Positions 1 through 13,938 of a stretch of DNA of 64,000 bases are shown one piece after another. Every line of letters begins with the position of its first letter. Within the stretch, counting starts at the first letter, position 1. Origin of the DNA: an uncultured Candidatus Peribacteria bacterium (GTDB lineage Bacteria > Patescibacteriota > Gracilibacteria > UBA1369 > LOWO2-01-FULL-3); assembly GCA_964525485.1 (NCBI GenBank), contig CAZGHH010000001.1:12455-76454 (forward strand). The letters are read 5' to 3'. The notes below the pieces were generated by a model. The model made no database searches and had not been told where the DNA came from. It saw only the letters and a list, made by a program, of their open reading frames with translations. The translations under genes were made by a program, and so were the position numbers.

Positions 1-1035
1 CATATGCCACGTCCTTCGGAAATGTCGAAATACAAAGTTTTTAACCAAAGTTTTTGTGCTATGCCAATAAGAAGTATGAAAAGAATTATTATTTGAAAAT
101 TCAAACTGAGCGAATGCGTTTTTTAAGCCCTCTGCATATTCAGCTGCACGTCTTTTGTCTTGAGCGGAAGCAATTACCCTGATCAAAGCTTCAAATCCCG
201 GTTTTGAGTTTTTTTCCTCCATCGCTTTGACTTCATCATCAGTGACAGGAGTAGTTCTCGTGGTCACTCCATCTTTGCCCATATTATCCACGCTTTTATC
301 ACCATGAATCAAAATTTCGAATAACGCAGAGAACCAAGTCAAAGGATTTAAGATCGAAAGGTCAAAACTTTTTTTATTTTGAAATTTTTTCTCAGCGATT
401 TGACGACCTTTCTTTTGCCATCCGTTCTTTTTTGGTTTAACCATTATTTGGATAGCAGCACCTTCATCTTTACCTATTTTTGAAAGAGAGTTTATTATTG
501 AGTTTAATGGGTCGGAAGTAAGTCTTTGGTATGTCTTAATAGGGAATGCGTAGGGTTCGTCCATATACAAATAGTGTCCGACTACTTTGCCGTTTGGTTG
601 AAAAATATTGTAATCATCAGCTCTCTCCACGTAAACATCGGGGTAAAAAGCGGTGATCTGTTTCTCAACATGATCGACCATATTTCTCGGACAAACTATA
701 AAAAATCTCACCAATCCATCTATAACAGCATATTCAAAAGAGAAGAATTCTTGTGATTTGAAAATCCTATACCATCTTTCTTGATACAAACTGTGCAAAG
801 TTTCATAGAAATGAGTCATAACACCAAGGACTTCTTTGAAATCCTTTGAAGATGAATATTTTTCACCTTCAACTTCTTTGTCCTCCTTTGATTCTTTTTT
901 TGGAACACGGATTTCGAGAAAAACCATATTAAGAGACCTCATCAGATTCATCTGAAATCTGATAAAGAAAATTAATAAAGTAGCAGCCAAAGCCACTCCA
1001 ATCCCAACCAGTGATGCAATTAACCATATAGGCAT
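1..1035 (-). CDS. Membrane-anchored TraD/VirD4-like protein, N-terminal 345 aa only (3' part lies beyond the window edge); paralogue of 23269..25956
   Basis: Hand translation is open from ATG 1035..1033 to position 1. It is missing from the ORF track because there is no in-window stop. N-terminal TM helix MPIWLIASLVGIGVALAATLLIFFI. Colinear matches to the 895-aa protein: VEKQITAFY/VEKQITSFY, PIKTYQ/PTKTYK, DPLN, FEALIRVIASA/FDAVIRLLATA. The ATPase domain itself is not visible here. Confidence 0.55.
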   Translation of the reverse strand, partial: MPIWLIASLVGIGVALAATLLIFFIRFQMNLMRSLNMVFLEIRVPKKESKEDKEVEGEKYSSSKDFKEVLGVMTHFYETLHSLYQERWYRIFKSQEFFSFEYAVIDGLVRFFIVCPRNMVDHVEKQITAFYPDVYVERADDYNIFQPNGKVVGHYLYMDEPYAFPIKTYQRLTSDPLNSIINSLSKIGKDEGAAIQIMVKPKKNGWQKKGRQIAEKKFQNKKSFDLSILNPLTWFSALFEILIHGDKSVDNMGKDGVTTRTTPVTDDEVKAMEEKNSKPGFEALIRVIASAQDKRRAAEYAEGLKNAFAQFEFSNNNSFHTSYWHSTKTLVKNFVFRHFRRTWHM

Positions 1036-6582: not shown

Positions 6583-7656
6583 TTGGCTAAAACAATCTTA
6601 ATAAAAGTAGGAACGAATGTCCTCACCAAAGAGGATAAAACGATTGATTTAAATCAAATTCAGTCTCTGGTAAATCAAATCGCAGACTTAAAAAAGAAAG
6701 GATACAAAGTTGTGCTTGTGACGTCGGGTGCCGTTGGCGCAGGTCGTCAAATTAATGAATTTAAAAATGTCGAAGACAAAGTTATAAGGAAACAAATGCT
6801 CGCAGCGGTTGGTCAAAACAAATTAATGGGTTCATACACGCATTTTTTCCGCGATCACAACATGGTAATTGCTCAAGCGCTTCTCACTCGTTCGGATTTT
6901 TCGAATCGCGAGAAATATACGAACATGAAAAAAACTCTCCTTGCACTTCTCGACGAAGGAGTAGTTCCGGTTATCAATGAGAACGATGTTGTTTCAACGG
7001 AAGAGCTTAGTTTTTCGGACAATGATATTCTCGCGGCATATACGGCAGCCCTTATCAGGGCTGATAAATTAATAATTCTCACAATAGTCGATGGGTTTTA
7101 TAACAAAGATCCATCCGATAAAAACGCAGAGCTCATTTGTGAAATTCACAAAGTCGAGGGGAAACTCCTCTATGCATGCGGAAAATCAAAATCAAGTATG
7201 GGAACAGGTGGAATGGCATCGAAGATAAAAGCTGCTCATATCGCAACAGAACTTGGCATTGAAATGGTTGTTATTAATGGCAAGAAAGAAACTTTGCAAA
7301 ATGTAATAAGCGGAAAATTCATCGGCACGACGTTTCATCCAAAAGCTAAAGAAAAGAAATCAGTATTCTATTGGCTTCTAGCTGGAGCTACCACATCAGG
7401 CAAAATTACGGTTGATGACGGGGTAGCGATTGCAGTGAAAAAGAGAAAAAGTTTGTTGTTTCCAGGGGTTGTAAATATTTATGGAGACTTCAAGAAAAAC
7501 GACACATTAGAAGTTTATGATTTAAAAGGAAATAAAATAGGAATTGGCCTATCAAATTATTCATCAGAGGATGCAGAAGCTATACTACAAAAATCTCGCA
7601 AAGCACAAAAGGATAAAAAAGAATTAATTCACGCAGATAATTTAAAAGTCTTTTAG
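6583..7656 (+). CDS. proB: Glutamate 5-kinase with C-terminal PUA domain
   Basis: 357 aa. Amino-acid-kinase motifs (ILIKVGTNVLT, VLVTSGAVGAG, NENDVVS) and a C-terminal PUA-like segment. TTG start at 6583. proC follows 9 nt later. Confidence 0.9.
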   Translation: MAKTILIKVGTNVLTKEDKTIDLNQIQSLVNQIADLKKKGYKVVLVTSGAVGAGRQINEFKNVEDKVIRKQMLAAVGQNKLMGSYTHFFRDHNMVIAQALLTRSDFSNREKYTNMKKTLLALLDEGVVPVINENDVVSTEELSFSDNDILAAYTAALIRADKLIILTIVDGFYNKDPSDKNAELICEIHKVEGKLLYACGKSKSSMGTGGMASKIKAAHIATELGIEMVVINGKKETLQNVISGKFIGTTFHPKAKEKKSVFYWLLAGATTSGKITVDDGVAIAVKKRKSLLFPGVVNIYGDFKKNDTLEVYDLKGNKIGIGLSNYSSEDAEAILQKSRKAQKDKKELIHADNLKVF

Positions 7657-7665
7657 CCCGCATAT

Positions 7666-8421
7666 ATGAAAATTACAATTATAGGAAACGGAACGATGGG
7701 AGGTCTGATTAAAGACGCACTTCTAAAGAAACATGTTTTTGCGAAGGCCGATTTGTTTTTTATCGGTCGTGATGATGCAAAAACTCCAGATACTAATATC
7801 TACCTTTTCGCTGTAAAACCTCAGGACTTTGTAGAGGCAAGTAAGAGACTAAAAGGAGTAAAAGGAAAGATTTTAATTTCAATAATGGCCGGAGTACCAA
7901 CTGCGAAAATCTCAAAAATTTTACCAGGAAACAAGGTTGTCCGCTCTATGCCAAATCTCGGAGCAAAAACTTTTGATTCGATGACGACTTGGATGGCAAA
8001 AGGTGGCTCAAGTAAAAAGAGTAATTTGACTCCAGCGGAAAAGAAAATGATAAAAGCAATTCTTTCATCTTTTGGTAAAGAATTAGAGGTGAAAAATGAC
8101 GACATGATTGATAAGGCGACGGCTATTGCAGGCTCGGGTCCAGGTTTTATGTATTTCATAGCCGACTCTCTCACAAAACAGGCAGTGAAATTTGGTTTCG
8201 CAAAAAACGACGCACAAAAATTGATAAAACAAATGTTCACAGGAACAGTTAATACATGGAATTCAACCGACGCAACGGCCGTCGAACTTCAGAAAAAAGT
8301 CACTTCGAAGAAAGGCACGACAGAAGCAGGTATTAATTCGTTCAAGAAAAACAAGCTTCCAGCATTACTAAGCAGAGGACTAAACGCTGCATACAAACGC
8401 GCAAAACAACTTTCGAAATAG
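7666..8421 (+). CDS. proC: Pyrroline-5-carboxylate reductase
   Basis: 251 aa. Rossmann N-terminus KITIIGNGTMGG, P5CR C-terminal block VTSKKGTTEAG. Sits next to proB. Confidence 0.85.
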   Translation: MKITIIGNGTMGGLIKDALLKKHVFAKADLFFIGRDDAKTPDTNIYLFAVKPQDFVEASKRLKGVKGKILISIMAGVPTAKISKILPGNKVVRSMPNLGAKTFDSMTTWMAKGGSSKKSNLTPAEKKMIKAILSSFGKELEVKNDDMIDKATAIAGSGPGFMYFIADSLTKQAVKFGFAKNDAQKLIKQMFTGTVNTWNSTDATAVELQKKVTSKKGTTEAGINSFKKNKLPALLSRGLNAAYKRAKQLSK

Positions 8422-8437
8422 CGATACTAAAATAGTA

Positions 8438-8466
8438 TTGACTAAATATTGATATAGTGTTATAAC
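8438..8466 (+). promoter_or_regulatory. Candidate sigma70-type promoter for the three-gene cassette (TTGACT-17 nt-TATAAC)
   Basis: -35 TTGACT at 8438..8443, 17-nt spacer, -10 TATAAC at 8461..8466, 26 nt upstream of ATG 8493. Lies in the 71-nt gap after proC. Confidence 0.4.
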
Positions 8467-8492
8467 ACACCCTATTATTAATTTATAAAAAT

Positions 8493-9380
8493 ATGGAAGG
8501 ATTAAAAACGATAGGTAGAAATATTACGGACAGATTAGCACTTTCTCCGGATGAAAGAGCGCAAAAAGAATCCTGCGTTGGTAAAATTTTAAAGTCTCTT
8601 GGAAAAGTTGGAATCAACGTGACTCAACATATTGAAGAAGAGGTGGATATGGCCGTACACAGAGATTTACAGGCGAGAAGATTGCCTCCAAACGTGAAAA
8701 TTCCACCAAGAAGACAAATCTTCGATTATTTAAAAACAATGTATCAGGCAAGAGGGTCAGTCTATGACGCAATTCATTCATTGATGTCACCGGGAGGATG
8801 GACTTCAAGTGGAGGATCATTTAAGTTAGCTGAAGAAAACGGAATACAAGTGGATGAATTAATACGACAAATTTTAGAAGAAAATGGGAAGGCGGGTTTT
8901 CTAGAAATCGGAGCGGGATACGCCGGTCTGTATGATAGAGAAAAAGAAGGATATGAGCCAAAAGGCGTTGGTAAAATAGTTTCCGAATTTAGGGATAAAT
9001 TGGGTGGAACTTTGAGTGTTCATTTAACAAATTTAACAGGATGGCATGAAGATTTGCCAGAAGGTATAAGAGAACATGAAGGGTTAATAGCCTCTACGAT
9101 CGAAACTCTAACTGATGAGGGAGTGAAAGAAGATGATATAGATGTAGTCTATTCACAATGCGCGGCATATTTTGATGCCAATGTGGACTTATTCATAGAA
9201 CAAGCTGCAAGATTTTTAAAACATTCAAACGCCGGAGGCTATTTGATATTTAATGGGAAAACCGAAGAAGATGAAAAAATAACAAGAGCTGCTACAGCAA
9301 GCGGATTAGAGCTAAAAAATAAAAAAGTTATTGGAGGAATGAACGGAACTTTATACATATTTAAAAAATTAAACACTTAA
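8493..9380 (+). CDS. Hypothetical cytoplasmic protein with class I SAM-methyltransferase-like motifs
   Basis: 295 aa, no signal peptide. Motif-I-like FLEIGAGYAG, motif-IV-like DVVYSQCAAYF, later GGYLIFNG. The fold assignment rests only on these motifs. Confidence 0.4.
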   Translation: MEGLKTIGRNITDRLALSPDERAQKESCVGKILKSLGKVGINVTQHIEEEVDMAVHRDLQARRLPPNVKIPPRRQIFDYLKTMYQARGSVYDAIHSLMSPGGWTSSGGSFKLAEENGIQVDELIRQILEENGKAGFLEIGAGYAGLYDREKEGYEPKGVGKIVSEFRDKLGGTLSVHLTNLTGWHEDLPEGIREHEGLIASTIETLTDEGVKEDDIDVVYSQCAAYFDANVDLFIEQAARFLKHSNAGGYLIFNGKTEEDEKITRAATASGLELKNKKVIGGMNGTLYIFKKLNT

Positions 9381-9390
9381 ATTAAACAAT

Positions 9391-10248
9391 ATGGAATCAA
9401 TAAAAACAGACGGTATTAATCATGGCAAAGAAGAAGTTCGCGGACCGAAGATGGCCTCTATAAGCGCTTTGACTGCGCTTAGAATTGTCGGAATTATGGG
9501 GGCAACACTTGGGGCAACATCAGGAATTGCCGGATGTGATGGAATAAGGGATAGCATATTTGCGTGTGCCAGCGCAAAAGAAGATGAAGGACGCTCTATT
9601 GAAGATCAAAAACAAGTAATGAAAGGCCTTAATTCACAAGCAGACGGTGAGTTTGTTAATTGGAATGTTAAAAGAATTGCCAATAATTTAACAGAAGGAT
9701 TAGATAAAAAACGAGCAATGATAAAACTTTTTGAATTCGTGCAAAGTTATCCTTACCAAATAAGACCTGTTGGTGATACGTCAAGAGAAGGAGTAGACTT
9801 ATACGATTTAGAAGAGGGAGACTGTAGACATAAAAGAAACGCTTTGTATGCGCTATTAGAATCCAAAGGATATGAAGTTAGAAAAGTCGCAATTGTGTTT
9901 GATTGGAAAGATTTGCCAGTACCAAAAGAAATACTAGACCTGAGAAGACAATCCGGCACAAGAGCTTTCCATAGCGGAATGGATGTGAAAATTAAAGGGA
10001 AGTGGGTAGCGATAGATCCAACATGGGATAAAGATCTTATAGAGGCAGGTTTTCCTGTTAACGAGAATTGGGATGGGGAATCTCCAATGAAGAATGTCAC
10101 ATTTGGAGAGTGTACGAGGGTCCAACACGATGAGTATGAGAAAATATCTGACTTATACGGTAAATTTGATATTCCATATCCTGTACAAAGTGAGAATCAG
10201 GCTTTTGTTCAAGCCTTAAATGAATGGCTGAAAAAACAGAGAAAGTAA
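9391..10248 (+). CDS. Transglutaminase-like cysteine protease/amidase, probable lipoprotein
   Basis: 285 aa. Signal peptide ending in lipobox-like IAGC. Transglutaminase-core Cys-His-Asp arrangement: GDCRHKRNALYALLESKGYEVRKV (Cys codon 9823..9825), FHSGMDV, WVAIDPTWD. Confidence 0.65.
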   Translation: MESIKTDGINHGKEEVRGPKMASISALTALRIVGIMGATLGATSGIAGCDGIRDSIFACASAKEDEGRSIEDQKQVMKGLNSQADGEFVNWNVKRIANNLTEGLDKKRAMIKLFEFVQSYPYQIRPVGDTSREGVDLYDLEEGDCRHKRNALYALLESKGYEVRKVAIVFDWKDLPVPKEILDLRRQSGTRAFHSGMDVKIKGKWVAIDPTWDKDLIEAGFPVNENWDGESPMKNVTFGECTRVQHDEYEKISDLYGKFDIPYPVQSENQAFVQALNEWLKKQRK

Positions 10249-10280
10249 GTGAAATAGCAACAATAATTAAATTAAATAAA

Positions 10281-11255
10281 ATGGAATCAAGAATAAACGA
10301 AACACAATTTGAAGATGAACCGTGCGAAGAATTAAAAGGACCTCTAACTTCGATCTCAAACAAAACGGTCATCGATATTCTGAGGAGGAACGGCGCAGCA
10401 CTGAAATTAGTACTTGCACTCGCAGCGGCAAATCCTTTGATAGCTAATTCGGCTGAAGCAAGACCTGGGAGAGGTCAATCTACTGAAATTGTTGATGAAA
10501 ATAATTTATACCAAGTTGACATAGAAAAGCTGAGAGAAAACATTTTAAGAAATGGAGTTCTTGTATTGACGCACAACGGAATGGACGGGGTAAATGTAAA
10601 ACCAGGTGAAGATGAATACTATCGAATATCTGAGGCGCAATCAGGATCTTCTAGTCTGGGCAGAAACACCCAACGTGGATATCTCCAGACGACCAAGAAA
10701 TTAAGTGGAATACAAGGAATAAACAGCAATGGAGAAGTAATAACGATAAATGGAAACGTAACAGTGCATGTAATAGACATGTCATACTTGAAAAGAGAAG
10801 AAATGAGAGAAGTGAGCAGAGGAGACTGCGGCGATACTCATCCGCAATATTGTAAATATAGCCAAGAGGAGGCAATAGACTACTTGGAAGGACAATTTGG
10901 TAATAAAAAATTTGGATTAATATTGGTTGCTGGTCATGTATTCAACATAGAAGAGTTGATTGAAGTTTCAAAACATTTTAGAGCCCCTGAGTCATTAACA
11001 TTACTTGGAGGATGTAGAACGGCGCAGTTTATCCCGGGAAATTTCAGAAACAATGCCTTAATGGCAGGATCGAGTGTAGGTATAGCGACAGAAAGATATA
11101 CACATTTAATGAGAAGCACTATAGCTGCAATACTAGGCAGACAATTTGGTAGATGGGAAGATTATCCAAGAATAATGGCGAGATACTCTGGGAATATTGG
11201 GACAGAAATTTTGCCAGGATCAGCGTCCTATAGAAGCTACATACCAAGAAGATAA
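10281..11255 (+). CDS. Secreted hypothetical protein
   Basis: The ORF track starts at 10224, overlapping the upstream gene. I prefer ATG 10281 (MESRINETQ...). It has a hydrophobic export segment ALKLVLALAAANPLIANSAEA followed by RPG. No family recognised. His/Cys pair discussed in findings. Confidence 0.55.
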   Translation: MESRINETQFEDEPCEELKGPLTSISNKTVIDILRRNGAALKLVLALAAANPLIANSAEARPGRGQSTEIVDENNLYQVDIEKLRENILRNGVLVLTHNGMDGVNVKPGEDEYYRISEAQSGSSSLGRNTQRGYLQTTKKLSGIQGINSNGEVITINGNVTVHVIDMSYLKREEMREVSRGDCGDTHPQYCKYSQEEAIDYLEGQFGNKKFGLILVAGHVFNIEELIEVSKHFRAPESLTLLGGCRTAQFIPGNFRNNALMAGSSVGIATERYTHLMRSTIAAILGRQFGRWEDYPRIMARYSGNIGTEILPGSASYRSYIPRR

Positions 11256-11298
11256 ATATTTCCGATTTGATAGTTGAAATTATCTTATGTAGAATGAG

Positions 11299-12549
11299 TT
11301 GCGTATGGAAAAAATCATTCTTGGCCTAAAAAAAGTAAAAACAATATCTCGTTTGCAGGTTAAAAAAGAAGACCGTGATTTAGTGTTAAAAACCTTCGCT
11401 AAAAATCTTGTAAAAGACTCTGCGAAAATCCTAAAAGCAAACAAGCTCGACCTTAAAAAGATGTCGAAGGAAAGTCCTTTATATGATCGTCTTCTTCTCG
11501 ACAACGCTAGAATTAAAAGTATAGCAGATAGCATCATCGATGTAACGAAGCTCGCCGACCCAACAGGCAAACTCCTTGAAAAACGCACTCTCAAAAACGG
11601 ACTCGCTCTTACAAAAATCTCAGTCCCACTCGGAGTGATTGGAGTTATATACGAAGCTCGTCCAAATGTCACAGCGGACGTATTTGCATTATGCTTCAAA
11701 GCAGGAAACGCATGTGTATTGAAAGGTGGCTCAGACGCAGAAAATTCCAACAAAGCGATCGTCGAAGTTATCAAGAAATCACTAAAAGAATGCAAAGTCT
11801 CAGAAAACTATCTTTATCTCATGCCTGCTGATCGTAAATACGTCGAAGTTCTCCTGAAAGCCGAGAAATATATTGATCTGATTATTCCACGCGGCAGTCA
11901 GGGGCTCATAAGATTCGTAAAAGAAAATTCACTCGTTCCGATAATAGAAACAGGAGCCGGCATAGTGCACACATATATAGATGATGATTTTAATGTCAGT
12001 TGGGCGAAGGAAATTGTTTTTAACGCAAAAACACAGCGCCCAGGAGTCTGTAACGCTCTCGACTCTCTTGTAATTCATCAGAAATCTCTGAAAAAACTTT
12101 CGGAAATTGTCTCGAAATTAAAAACTAAAGAAGTAATAATCTACGCAGACAAACCAGCTTACGATGCATTAAAAGGCAAATACCCTGCAGAACTTCTCAA
12201 GAAAGCGACTCAAGAGCATTTCGGTAAAGAGTTCTTATCTCTGCAAATGGCAATTAAAACCGTGAAGAATTTCGATGAAGCTCTGAATCATATAAATACA
12301 TACACATCCCACCATTCCGAGTCGATAATTTCAAATAATCTCAAAAATCAGGAGAAATTTATTGAAAATATCGACGCAGCCGCGGTCTACACAAACGCTT
12401 CTACCAGATTCACAGACGGTGGTGAATACGGTCTTGGCGCAGAAATAGGTATATCTACTCAAAAACTCCACGCCCGCGGTCCATTCGCACTAGAAGCCCT
12501 CACGACATATAAATGGATTGCACGCGGAAAAGGCCAATATAGAAAATAG
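11299..12549 (+). CDS. proA: Gamma-glutamyl phosphate reductase
   Basis: 416 aa. GPR/aldehyde-dehydrogenase blocks: IYEARPNVT, catalytic-Cys region RPGVCNALDSLVIH, HHSESIIS, YTNASTRFTDGGEYGLGAEIGISTQKLHARGP. Confidence 0.92.
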   Translation: MRMEKIILGLKKVKTISRLQVKKEDRDLVLKTFAKNLVKDSAKILKANKLDLKKMSKESPLYDRLLLDNARIKSIADSIIDVTKLADPTGKLLEKRTLKNGLALTKISVPLGVIGVIYEARPNVTADVFALCFKAGNACVLKGGSDAENSNKAIVEVIKKSLKECKVSENYLYLMPADRKYVEVLLKAEKYIDLIIPRGSQGLIRFVKENSLVPIIETGAGIVHTYIDDDFNVSWAKEIVFNAKTQRPGVCNALDSLVIHQKSLKKLSEIVSKLKTKEVIIYADKPAYDALKGKYPAELLKKATQEHFGKEFLSLQMAIKTVKNFDEALNHINTYTSHHSESIISNNLKNQEKFIENIDAAAVYTNASTRFTDGGEYGLGAEIGISTQKLHARGPFALEALTTYKWIARGKGQYRK

Positions 12550-12559
12550 AAAGATTACC

Positions 12560-12644
12560 TGGTGCCCAGAGAGAGACTCGAACTCTCATGAGTTGCCTCA
12601 CTAGCTCCTAAGGCTAGCGTGTCTACCAATTCCACCATCTGGGC
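12560..12644 (-). tRNA. tRNA-Leu (anticodon TAG), CCA encoded
   Basis: Minus-strand read GCCCAGATGGTGGAATTGGTAGACACGCTAGCCTTAGGAGCTAG...GTTCGAGTCTCTCTCTGGGCACCA. 7-bp acceptor stem, anticodon loop CTTAGGA, long variable arm, T-loop TTCGAGT. Confidence 0.9.
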
Positions 12645-12876: not shown

Positions 12877-13938
12877 ATGAATACAAGCGCAAAAATCAAC
12901 CTCAATGAGATCCTAGAAGAAATTTTTATGGTCCTCACGGTAAAGGAAAAAGACGTTGTTATTAAGCGTTTCAGTCTCAATTCTAAACCACGCCAGACCC
13001 TAGAAAAGATTGGCCAGCATTTTTCCGTAACTAGAGAAAGAATCAGACAAATTGAGAAAATCGCGCTTGGCAAGCTTCGCAGAACTGTTAAGAATACAAA
13101 ACTCAACATCATTAATGAAATTTCAAATGAGGTTATTGCTGAAAACGGTGGAGTAATGGTGGAAAGCAAATTGGTTGCAGCAATCCTCTCCAAAATTCTT
13201 TCTTCTCAGGACGCTGACAAATATATTGTTAGATTGGCTCTCAATATCAATCCTGAAATTGAGAAAATTGAGAAGAGCAACGTTCTTTATCCATTTTGGA
13301 AAGTTAAGGATGTTTCTGAGGATGACGTAGAGAAAATTATCAAAGCAGGAGTTAGCGTTTTGAAGAAAGCAAAAGAAGTTATCGATCATCAGAAATTGGC
13401 AGCTCAGGTAAAAGCTGAATTAAAAGGAAAAATTGCTGAATATCCAGATGTAATGGTCATTTCTTCATTGGAAGTTGATAGAAGAATCAAGAAGGTGTCT
13501 GAAGGTTTCGGTCTTATGGAGTGGAGACACATCAATCCACGTTCAATCCGTGATAAAGCTTATATCGTTCTTAAAAAAGCCACAAAACCTTTGCATTTCG
13601 TAGAGATTGCAAATCAAATTTCAGAATCAGGCTTCGACAAAAAAGTTGTTACGACTCAAGCAGTTCACAACGAGCTTATTCGTTATGATCAATTCGTATT
13701 GGTCGGTCGCGGACTTTATGCTCTCAAAGAATGGGGGTATGATGAAGGCACGGTTGCTGATGTAATAGAGCAACTTCTTCGTAAAAAAAGCCCAATGTCT
13801 AAACAGGAGATCATCGAAGGTGTGCTAAAGCAAAGACAGGTTAAAAAAGGCACAATATCTTTGAATCTTCAAAAGAACGCACAATTCGTCCGTGTTGGTC
13901 GTGCGGTCTATAAATTAGACAACTCTAAGAAGAAATAA
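12877..13938 (+). CDS. Sigma-70 region-4-type HTH protein with C-terminal HARE-HTH-like domain
   Basis: 353 aa. N-terminal region-4-like HTH (TLEKIGQHFSVTRERIRQIEKIALGKLRR). C-terminal winged-helix block LHFVEIANQI...VHNELIRYDQFVLVGRGLYALKEWGY, typical of HARE-HTH (RNAP delta-subunit-like). Confidence 0.6.
   Translation: MNTSAKINLNEILEEIFMVLTVKEKDVVIKRFSLNSKPRQTLEKIGQHFSVTRERIRQIEKIALGKLRRTVKNTKLNIINEISNEVIAENGGVMVESKLVAAILSKILSSQDADKYIVRLALNINPEIEKIEKSNVLYPFWKVKDVSEDDVEKIIKAGVSVLKKAKEVIDHQKLAAQVKAELKGKIAEYPDVMVISSLEVDRRIKKVSEGFGLMEWRHINPRSIRDKAYIVLKKATKPLHFVEIANQISESGFDKKVVTTQAVHNELIRYDQFVLVGRGLYALKEWGYDEGTVADVIEQLLRKKSPMSKQEIIEGVLKQRQVKKGTISLNLQKNAQFVRVGRAVYKLDNSKKK

Follow-up and report, generated by a model that had tools for sequence, protein, structure and literature searches.

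A three-gene module with a predicted promoter of its own occupies the proC-proA spacer in the proline operon of a Candidatus Peribacteria genome

The stretch of DNA analysed here (64,000 nucleotides (nt) in full length, referred to as the window) covers positions 12455-76454 of contig CAZGHH010000001.1 from assembly GCA_964525485.1 (0.997 Mb, 54 contigs, 97% complete), which represents an uncultured Candidatus Peribacteria bacterium of the candidate phyla radiation (CPR). All positions are given in window coordinates, and the features are collected in Table 1. Between proC and an intact proA, the proline operon holds a cassette of three genes (named gA, gB and gC) that share the orientation of the pro genes and encode, in this order, a predicted cytoplasmic protein with a methyltransferase-type core and two putatively exported proteins. 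The flanking genes proB, proC and proA were identified with NCBIfam models, proB and proA scoring far above the curated cut-offs and proC below its own. Spacing at the locus is tight: 9 nt separate proB from proC, 10 nt gA from gB and 32 nt gB from gC, while a gap of 71 nt (8422-8492) lies between proC and gA, the insertion starting directly after the stop codon of proC. At the right end, proA follows gC after 43 nt if TTG 11299 is taken as its start and after 49 nt if ATG 11305 is used, the latter being the likelier start as judged by alignment with relatives. For gC, a longer open reading frame (ORF) from ATG 10224, overlapping gB, is possible; we place its start at 10281 because the relatives agree on it and because a 35-nt repeat is common to this position and the start region of gB. 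No intrinsic terminator was predicted on the forward strand from proB to the end of proA. A preliminary description of the locus had given the same ORFs and intergenic distances, together with the position of a TTGACT-17-TATAAC element, and all of them were reproduced on re-mapping.

We regard it as next to certain that positions 8422-11298 are a lineage-specific insertion, which replaced the 17-23-nt proC-proA spacer of a conserved proB-proC-proA operon. The proA loci of 40 relatives were retrieved and searched (tblastn) with the pro and cassette proteins, and proC was found immediately upstream of proA in 12 of them, including both genomes of the same genus (proB-proC-proA in G002, locus L005; proC-proA in G001, locus L006), where the stop codon of proC and the ATG of proA are the said 17-23 nt apart. 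One further relative has proB directly before proA, and the remaining ones have other genes upstream of it. Cassette genes were encountered at none of the proA loci fetched from the 40 relatives, and the complete trio in none of the 40. In G001 as in the window, proA is followed by the same sigma-r4/HARE-HTH gene, so that synteny is kept on both sides, and the window proA is 85% identical to a same-genus proA. The cassette proteins themselves are scarce in this part of the tree: gB homologues occur in only two of the 40 relatives (weak and partial matches to 173-aa ORFs located elsewhere in the genome, at 28-30% identity), a profile of the gA family had no match among 400 other genomes of the class (229 genera), and no paralogue of gA, gB or gC was found elsewhere in the genome of origin. 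An assembly chimera can be excluded because two independent single-run assemblies reproduce the arrangement: Logan contig L078 (SRR8925823) matches window positions 6628-12588 at 100% identity and spans both junctions, and Logan contig L079 (SRR8925788) matches 8643-12629 at 99.2% and agrees in the right junction. Thus, the earlier suggestion of an accessory module dropped into a normally contiguous proBCA operon, for which synteny in related genomes had been named as the check, is backed by 12 relatives with adjacent proC and proA and none with the insert, by the recurrence of the trio elsewhere and by independently assembled junctions.

Table 1. Features of the proB-proA region and of a related plasmid locus (window coordinates, except for the last row, which is numbered by its own locus)
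Feature	Position	Strand	Details
proB (glutamate 5-kinase), left flank	6583..7656	+	TIGR01027, 357 bits (cut-off 186); AA_kinase and PUA
proC (pyrroline-5-carboxylate reductase)	7666..8421	+	TIGR00112, E 2.9e-53, 181.2 bits (cut-off 196.75)
Cassette promoter candidate TTGACT-17-TATAAC	8438..8466	+	-35 at 8438-8443, -10 at 8461-8466
Second, overlapping promoter candidate TTGATA-18-TATTAT	8449-8478	+	
Perfect 12-bp palindrome overlapping the -10 hexamer	8457..8468	.	unique in the 1.0-Mb genome, 0.1 copies expected
gA	8493..9380	+	295 aa; predicted cytoplasmic; N-terminal helical domain and class-I SAM-methyltransferase Rossmann core (model)
Translation-start region of gB, 35 nt	9372..9406	+	repeated before gC at 10262-10296, 83% identical
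gB	9391..10248	+	285 aa; predicted exported transglutaminase-like Cys-His-Asp protein; lipobox IAGC
gC	10281..11255	+	324 aa; predicted exported alpha/beta protein; rare unnamed family
Promoter-like TTGATA-17-TAGAAT in the new gC-proA spacer	11267..11295	+	10/12 matches
proA (glutamate-5-semialdehyde dehydrogenase), right flank, intact	11299..12549	+	NF001221, 522 bits (cut-off 289)
NcrB-operator-like palindromes in L033 (NZ_LR890193.1)	8470-8486, 10895-10911, 13893-13909		

The order gA-gB-gC, with similar gene sizes, recurs in five other metagenomic loci (L024/L034, L027, L068, L069 and L070), one of which (L068) ends within gC, its similarity to the window gC going undetected. Identities to the window proteins amount to 50-70% for gA, 39-53% for gB and 32-39% for gC, and the neighbouring genes vary from locus to locus (an S-layer homology (SLH) wall protein, EF-P, a divergent MgtE and a 1517-aa protein). 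When 61 gA homologues were placed in a maximum-likelihood tree, the window and all loci for which the trio was demonstrated fell into a single 11-member clade (support 96/95), with the window as sister to L068; its partners in this clade are uncultured bacteria known just from contigs, one of them labelled Candidatus Gracilibacteria by NCBI. Promoter, gA, gB and gC make up a rare module that occupies a different chromosomal site in every carrier genome. In L027, the sequence right after the gC stop codon (7706-7741, TGGTGGAGATGGGGGGAATCGAACCCCC) resembles the 3' end of an opposite-strand tRNA gene; this copy of the trio would adjoin a tRNA, and the locus is cut off too soon for an ARAGORN call.

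The preliminary description had also credited the cassette with a promoter of its own. In the window alone, the match is at chance level (15 promoter-like sites in 6.6 kb, with 18.1 expected from shuffles), but an equivalent site was found in six of six trio copies, and it is this six-fold conservation, rather than the window match, that supports the claim. Each copy carries TTGAC[AT]-16..18-TAnnn[TAC], whose -35 box precedes the gA start by 55-72 nt, a pattern that was defined post hoc (from the data themselves) and that arises by chance in 1-1.6% of shuffled 100-nt windows, the product over the six windows being ~6e-12. We therefore think it likely that the cassette carries an autonomous, near-consensus sigma-70 promoter, as predicted from these motifs. 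The palindrome overlapping the -10 hexamer in the window (GTGTTATAACAC) is a possible operator; it is not conserved in the other trio loci and no regulator was identified for it. Since the insert is co-directional with the pro genes, read-through into proA is possible, and the insertion need not silence it: transcripts begun at the pro and cassette promoters could run on into proA, or transcription could begin at the promoter-like site in the new gC-proA spacer. This site may drive proA, which in that case gained a promoter of its own via the insertion, the 17-23-nt spacers of the relatives having no room for one.

The three genes of the window also resemble each other around their starts (8487-8522, 9372-9420 and 10262-10296). 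All begin with ATGGAA (ME[G/S]...), and the start regions of gA and gB have 36 nt in common at 72%. Considering that this similarity is not seen in the other trio loci, it arose in the window lineage, possibly through gene conversion or through selection on A-rich initiation regions that lack a Shine-Dalgarno sequence.

The product of gA has no signal peptide and no match in Pfam or NCBIfam. Its AlphaFold2 model (predicted local distance difference test (pLDDT) 94.3, predicted template modelling score 0.92) consists of a helical N-terminal domain (residues 1-131) and a Rossmann domain (134-292), and a Foldseek search with it returned 199 Protein Data Bank (PDB) hits at E <= 1e-3; the matches listed were almost all of the class-I S-adenosylmethionine (SAM)-dependent methyltransferase fold (E 4.7e-7 to ~7e-5). 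Across the 61 sequences of the family, motif I (LEIGAGYAG) has G140 and G145 invariant and L137, E138 and A144 nearly so, and motif IV (DxxYSQ) is conserved. Weak matches to Methyltransf_11 were obtained for 22 of the 61 (best E 7e-6). Hence, the SAM-methyltransferase-like motifs reported earlier agree with both the modelled fold and the profile matches of the relatives, and we are confident that, on the strength of the model, gA has the class-I SAM-dependent methyltransferase fold. It shares the Rossmann fold and motifs I and IV with AprA MT2 (6d6y), ArsM (5evj) and the CurJ C-MT (5thy), to which it shows 11-16% identity and template modelling (TM) scores of 0.34-0.43, but it departs from class-I methyltransferases by an additional helical N-terminal domain of 130 residues (with the invariant motifs RDxQAxRLPPN and WTSSGGSFKLAE) and by the loss of the acidic residue that ends strand 2, where the family consensus reads HFTNLT with T179 and N180 nearly invariant. 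The conserved As-binding cysteines of ArsM are not present in gA. A nicotianamine-synthase-like or ArsM-like identity was considered and rejected, as these matches were no better than those to generic methyltransferases and no conserved cysteines were seen.

As for gB, we regard it as a divergent member of the transglutaminase/papain-type Cys-His-Asp proteins, with a lipoprotein signal and predicted export. Five of six family members match Transglut_core (best E 5.4e-6); the window sequence itself (E 1.7e-4, 22.3 bits) falls just short of the gathering cut-off of 23. C145 (GDCRHK), H194 and D209 (DPTWD) are invariant in six sequences from four phyla-level groups. The resemblance to the transglutaminase-like superfamily (PF01841) lies in the canonical order of the Cys-His-Asp residues and in a profile match that runs across the whole core, the difference in the score just under the threshold and in an extension of its own (DLPIP, DPTWD, FPV..WDG.SP); no solved structure is detectable for gB by sequence. 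The superfamily includes predicted cysteine peptidases, a prediction that reportedly goes back to Makarova, Aravind and Koonin in 1999. The signal of gB ends in ...LGATSGIAGC|DG, with the lipobox IAGC placed after a hydrophobic segment; a cysteine after such a segment is also found in four of its five relatives. Lgt is encoded twice in the genome and LspA once. Triad, lipobox and processing enzymes together agree with the lipoprotein-type transglutaminase-like protein of the preliminary description.

The third product, gC, had been described as a signal-peptide protein of no known family, and so it proved: neither as a single sequence nor as a profile did it match anything in Pfam, NCBIfam, PHROGs, PADLOC or PDB. 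When 1.84 billion cluster representatives were searched with its profile, a family of 23 clusters emerged (4 close and 19 distant), throughout which G-H219, G-G-C245, W292, P312 and Y317 are invariant. The AlphaFold2 model (pLDDT 67 overall, mostly 82-93 over residues 200-324) has H219 and C245 each at the C-terminal end of a strand, the two strands being parallel neighbours, and sets C245 in a strand-turn-helix 'nucleophile elbow' (GGCxS/T/A/G). Foldseek found no significant match in PDB, the best hits (E 8e-3) being generic Rossmann-like domains. The arrangement recalls the clan CD peptidases (caspase, gingipain, CHAT) in that His and Cys each follow a hydrophobic strand, but differs from them in the motifs (GH and GGC versus HG and (Q/A)AC) and in a cysteine set in a nucleophile-elbow-like turn; a caspase-like assignment was provisionally rejected, there being no fold match at E < 1e-3 and no family hit for a model of moderate confidence. 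Kinship with DUF1615 was likewise dropped, since BLAST returned nothing significant, and the gene contexts of the distant gC relatives (unrelated genes) were uninformative.

The export signals of the two proteins differ between the window and its relatives. In all five relatives, both gB and gC bear twin-arginine (RR) motifs (e.g., SRRRFL, SRRTAL, GRRNFL, SRRDF), and TAT_signal is the only recurrent Pfam match in the wider gC family. The window gB lacks the RR (SALTALR where L027 has SRRTALR) and the window gC retains just a degenerate version (LRRNGAAL). TatC, of the twin-arginine translocation (Tat) system, was found in none of the 41 genomes sampled in the order, the genome of origin included. 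To judge from these motifs, the signals look like those of a Tat-type module adapting to a Sec-only host. A trio-bearing metagenome-assembled genome labelled Gracilibacteria (G425, of unknown completeness) gave no TatC hit despite its RR signals, and the RR motif in these lineages may not need Tat; the idea that the signals prove a foreign, Tat-bearing donor is weakened by it and was set aside.

For gA, 65 homologues were found, distributed over Alpha-, Gamma- and Deltaproteobacteria, Ignavibacteria and DPANN archaea. We surveyed 38 loci (34 species representatives and four others), clustering the neighbouring ORFs and scanning their representatives against Pfam. A gB homologue lies directly 3' of gA in 27 of the 38, none was found at the archaeal gA loci, and gC is confined to the CPR-type loci of the survey. 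A metal-homeostasis gene was present within 6 kb at 26 of 27 non-CPR bacterial gA loci, the recurrent neighbours being CsoR/RcnR repressors (12 loci), a small exported His-rich protein directly upstream of gA (16), NcrA-type transporters of the major facilitator superfamily (MFS; 9), HupE/UreJ (8), multicopper oxidases (8) and heavy-metal P-type ATPases (6). Across Proteobacteria and Ignavibacteria, gA followed by gB is a fixed pair, situated within Ni/Co/Cu/Zn homeostasis islands. As an archaeal counterpart of the pair, we considered a 247-269-aa protein with a C/H/D-like motif recognised by eye, whose gene clusters with gA at archaeal loci (in L038 it follows gA immediately), and rejected it on a profile-profile probability of 0.2% against gB. 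Separately, a PBP2-like transpeptidase gene was seen right after gA-gB within metal-resistance islands in ten Hyphomicrobiales loci (including L042, L044, L050, L056, L057 and L060-L063).

Homologues of gA were also recovered from 265 enterobacterial plasmids. On the Klebsiella plasmid NZ_LR890193.1 (locus L033), the order is HupE/UreJ, a 229-aa protein, a His-rich 123-aa protein, gA-like, gB-like, ncrA, ncrB and rcnA. The ncrA gene is preceded by an exact palindrome (ATCCCCCCTGGGGGGAT), which recurs downstream of rcnA (just before a gene annotated NirD/YgiW/YdeI), and a near copy (ATCCTCCCCGGGGGGAT) is placed between a TTTACA box and the His-rich gene, that is, upstream of the His-rich-gA-gB operon. 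Judging from this NcrB-operator-like site, the Klebsiella operon would be under nickel control via NcrB. Compared with the ncr-adjacent operon of Klebsiella and Enterobacter plasmids (a His-rich protein, a 306-aa protein and a Tat transglutaminase-like protein, in this order; ncr determinant, PMC3046157 and PMC8545094), the window trio has homologous gA and gB genes in the same order and in tight linkage (gA ~38% identical to the enterobacterial homologue, gB ~37% to a chromosomal Yersinia homologue), and the exported gB homologue keeps the Cys-His-Asp triad. The two differ in that the plasmid operon begins with the small His-rich exported protein, has no gC and adjoins the NcrA, NcrB and RcnA genes behind the NcrB-operator-like palindrome, whereas the window cassette includes gC and is not accompanied by metal genes; none of the ncr determinant genes (NcrA MFS, NcrB CsoR/RcnR, NcrC NicO) was found near the cassette. 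Within the keyword-searched text of PMC8545094, the His-rich, gA-like and gB-like genes are not mentioned, and our literature searches retrieved no paper describing the gA-gB pair.

Here, we reason from these associations towards a function. In the scheme that we propose, gA would use SAM in the cytoplasm to produce or alter a substrate, and the exported thiol enzymes gB and gC would act outside the cell, cleaving or cross-linking a peptide, a protein or a component of the wall. The module would amount to a cytoplasm-plus-envelope enzyme set, probably selected for in connection with metal or thiol-reactive stress at the envelope. Taken as a whole, an inserted, autonomous three-gene module with a role in the envelope or in metal stress is the best explanation of the locus, and one that we consider reasonably probable; the metal-stress or envelope function, considered by itself, is put forward tentatively. 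More doubtful still is a broader version, in which gA-gB would form the core of an unrecognised, widely mobile envelope metal-stress system, joined by a lineage-specific third exported partner (the small His-rich protein in Proteobacteria, gC in CPR bacteria), regulated by nickel through NcrB in enterobacteria, and captured by a Tat-less CPR bacterium in which the signal of gB was retooled to that of a lipoprotein.

Several observations weigh against this explanation, the first set of them concerning the history of the insert. It contains just three ORFs and no integrase or transposase, and neither terminal inverted repeats nor flanking direct repeats nor a target-site duplication were found; the former proC-proA spacer is no longer recognisable. 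Its composition is unremarkable, with 37.6% GC (38.1% in the genome), a tetranucleotide distance at the 89th percentile of 2.8-kb windows and codon-usage distances at the 19th-63rd percentile of 591 long ORFs, and the GC content at third codon positions (7th-31st percentile) is no outlier either. Compositional foreignness was therefore rejected, and the k-mer and codon-usage comparison proposed in the preliminary description brought no foreign signature to light; for want of such a signal, the donor probably resembled the genome in composition (GC is 39% in the closest relative contig). Furthermore, of the 32 differences between Logan contig L079 and the window, only one falls in the 2613 bp of the cassette and 31 fall in the 1245 bp of proA (21 synonymous, 10 non-synonymous), the mismatch density shifting ~86 nt into proA. 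This pattern could mean that the cassette is far younger than the divergence of the strains and was spread by recombination (a recombinational sweep); the other possibility, which counts against our explanation, is a strain-chimeric contig that joins a cassette-bearing and a cassette-less strain. On either account the element would be recent and polymorphic. A mobile island or transposon was rejected for lack of integrase, repeats and deviant composition (only the patchy distribution and the variable context fit it), as was a phage or defence origin (no PADLOC hits, nothing meaningful in PHROG, gA in no phage record); gC was found on no plasmid.

The second set concerns the function. The metal link is transferred from distant homologues (34-46% identity for gB, 35-47% for gA), and many of the 26 metal-associated loci come from related Hyphomicrobiales, so that the count overstates their independence. 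Neither in the window nor at the five other trio loci does a metal-homeostasis gene adjoin the trio, apart from the divergent MgtE at one of the five (L068), and the genome encodes no CsoR/RcnR repressor (PF02583). SAM binding by gA is uncertain, because T179-N180 replace the usual acidic residue of strand 2. Considering that the signals of the relatives are Tat-type and that the host has no TatC, the export and function of gB and gC could be compromised.

Among the alternatives, a module for the remodelling of peptidoglycan is a serious rival, albeit one that we judge unlikely. Under it, gB would act on peptidoglycan as a peptidase of the papain/NlpC type and gC would be another thiol hydrolase of the wall, with the metal-island link being secondary (the module might, for example, replace or protect metal-sensitive wall enzymes). 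The PBP2-like gene directly 3' of gB in the ten Hyphomicrobiales loci fits this, and so do an AMIN-Amidase_3 gene adjoining the pair in Pelagibius, an exported DUF1615 protein (with an SLT-like ES...GPMQV motif, read by eye) next to gA in a deltaproteobacterium and an archaeon, and the SLH-domain wall proteins that adjoin the trio in L024 and L069. However, all four kinds of neighbour are missing from the window, gB has no profile link with either NlpC/P60 or L,D-transpeptidases, the SLT-like motif of DUF1615 was recognised by inspection only, and the role of a cytoplasmic gA is left unexplained.

The surface-modifying or host-interaction trio envisaged in the preliminary description, whose exported enzymes would act on proteins of an attached host cell, appears improbable. 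In its favour, host association is common among CPR bacteria, export is predicted for two of the three proteins, and the distribution in small-genome lineages is patchy down to the strain level; nonetheless, gA-gB is common in free-living Proteobacteria (within metal islands), no adhesin, secretion-system or toxin domains and no PADLOC or PHROG hits were obtained, and the company that the genes keep suggests metal stress or envelope functions instead, leaving the host-interaction role without support. It seems just as improbable that the cassette is inert recent cargo, in which Tat-dependent proteins stranded in a Tat-less host will decay, and which persists as the expression of proA is undisturbed. 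The absence of TatC from the genome and from all those sampled in the order, the RR lost in gB and degenerate in gC, and a cassette apparently much younger than the divergence of the strains would be expected of it. Yet none of the three ORFs is disrupted or has lost a residue that is invariant in its family, gB has acquired a genuine lipobox, for which Lgt and LspA are at hand in the genome (which looks like adaptation, not decay), and the RR signals kept by G425 without a TatC hit imply that export may not need Tat. Lastly, the notion that the trio is ancestral to the pro operon, serves proline metabolism and was lost in the relatives is effectively refuted, for all its co-orientation and tight packing with the pro genes and the lack of a terminator between them, by the contiguity of proC and proA in 12/12 relatives with proC upstream of proA, the absence of gA from all 400 class genomes, the five other trio copies that do not lie beside pro genes, and the conserved promoter of the cassette.

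That accessory cassettes enter housekeeping operons is familiar, and two of the three folds have been described before; what is new is this module, its insertion (with a predicted promoter and without mobility genes) in a CPR genome, and the metal-island link of its core pair. The locus thus provides a junction-verified case of a cassette, bearing its own putative promoter, that settled in the spacer of a housekeeping operon of a ~1-Mb CPR genome without any recognisable mobility gene, and the uneven mismatches of L079 hint at its recent arrival or spread. With gC, it defines a very rare family of predicted exported His/Cys proteins that has no fold or family match. The PBP2-like neighbour of the Hyphomicrobiales loci constitutes an unexpected tie between cell-wall synthesis and metal islands. 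The genes gA and gB draw attention to a widespread, uncharacterised pair, made up of a methyltransferase-fold protein and a putatively exported transglutaminase-like protein, that resides in Ni/Co/Cu/Zn islands, including the ncr region of a Klebsiella plasmid.

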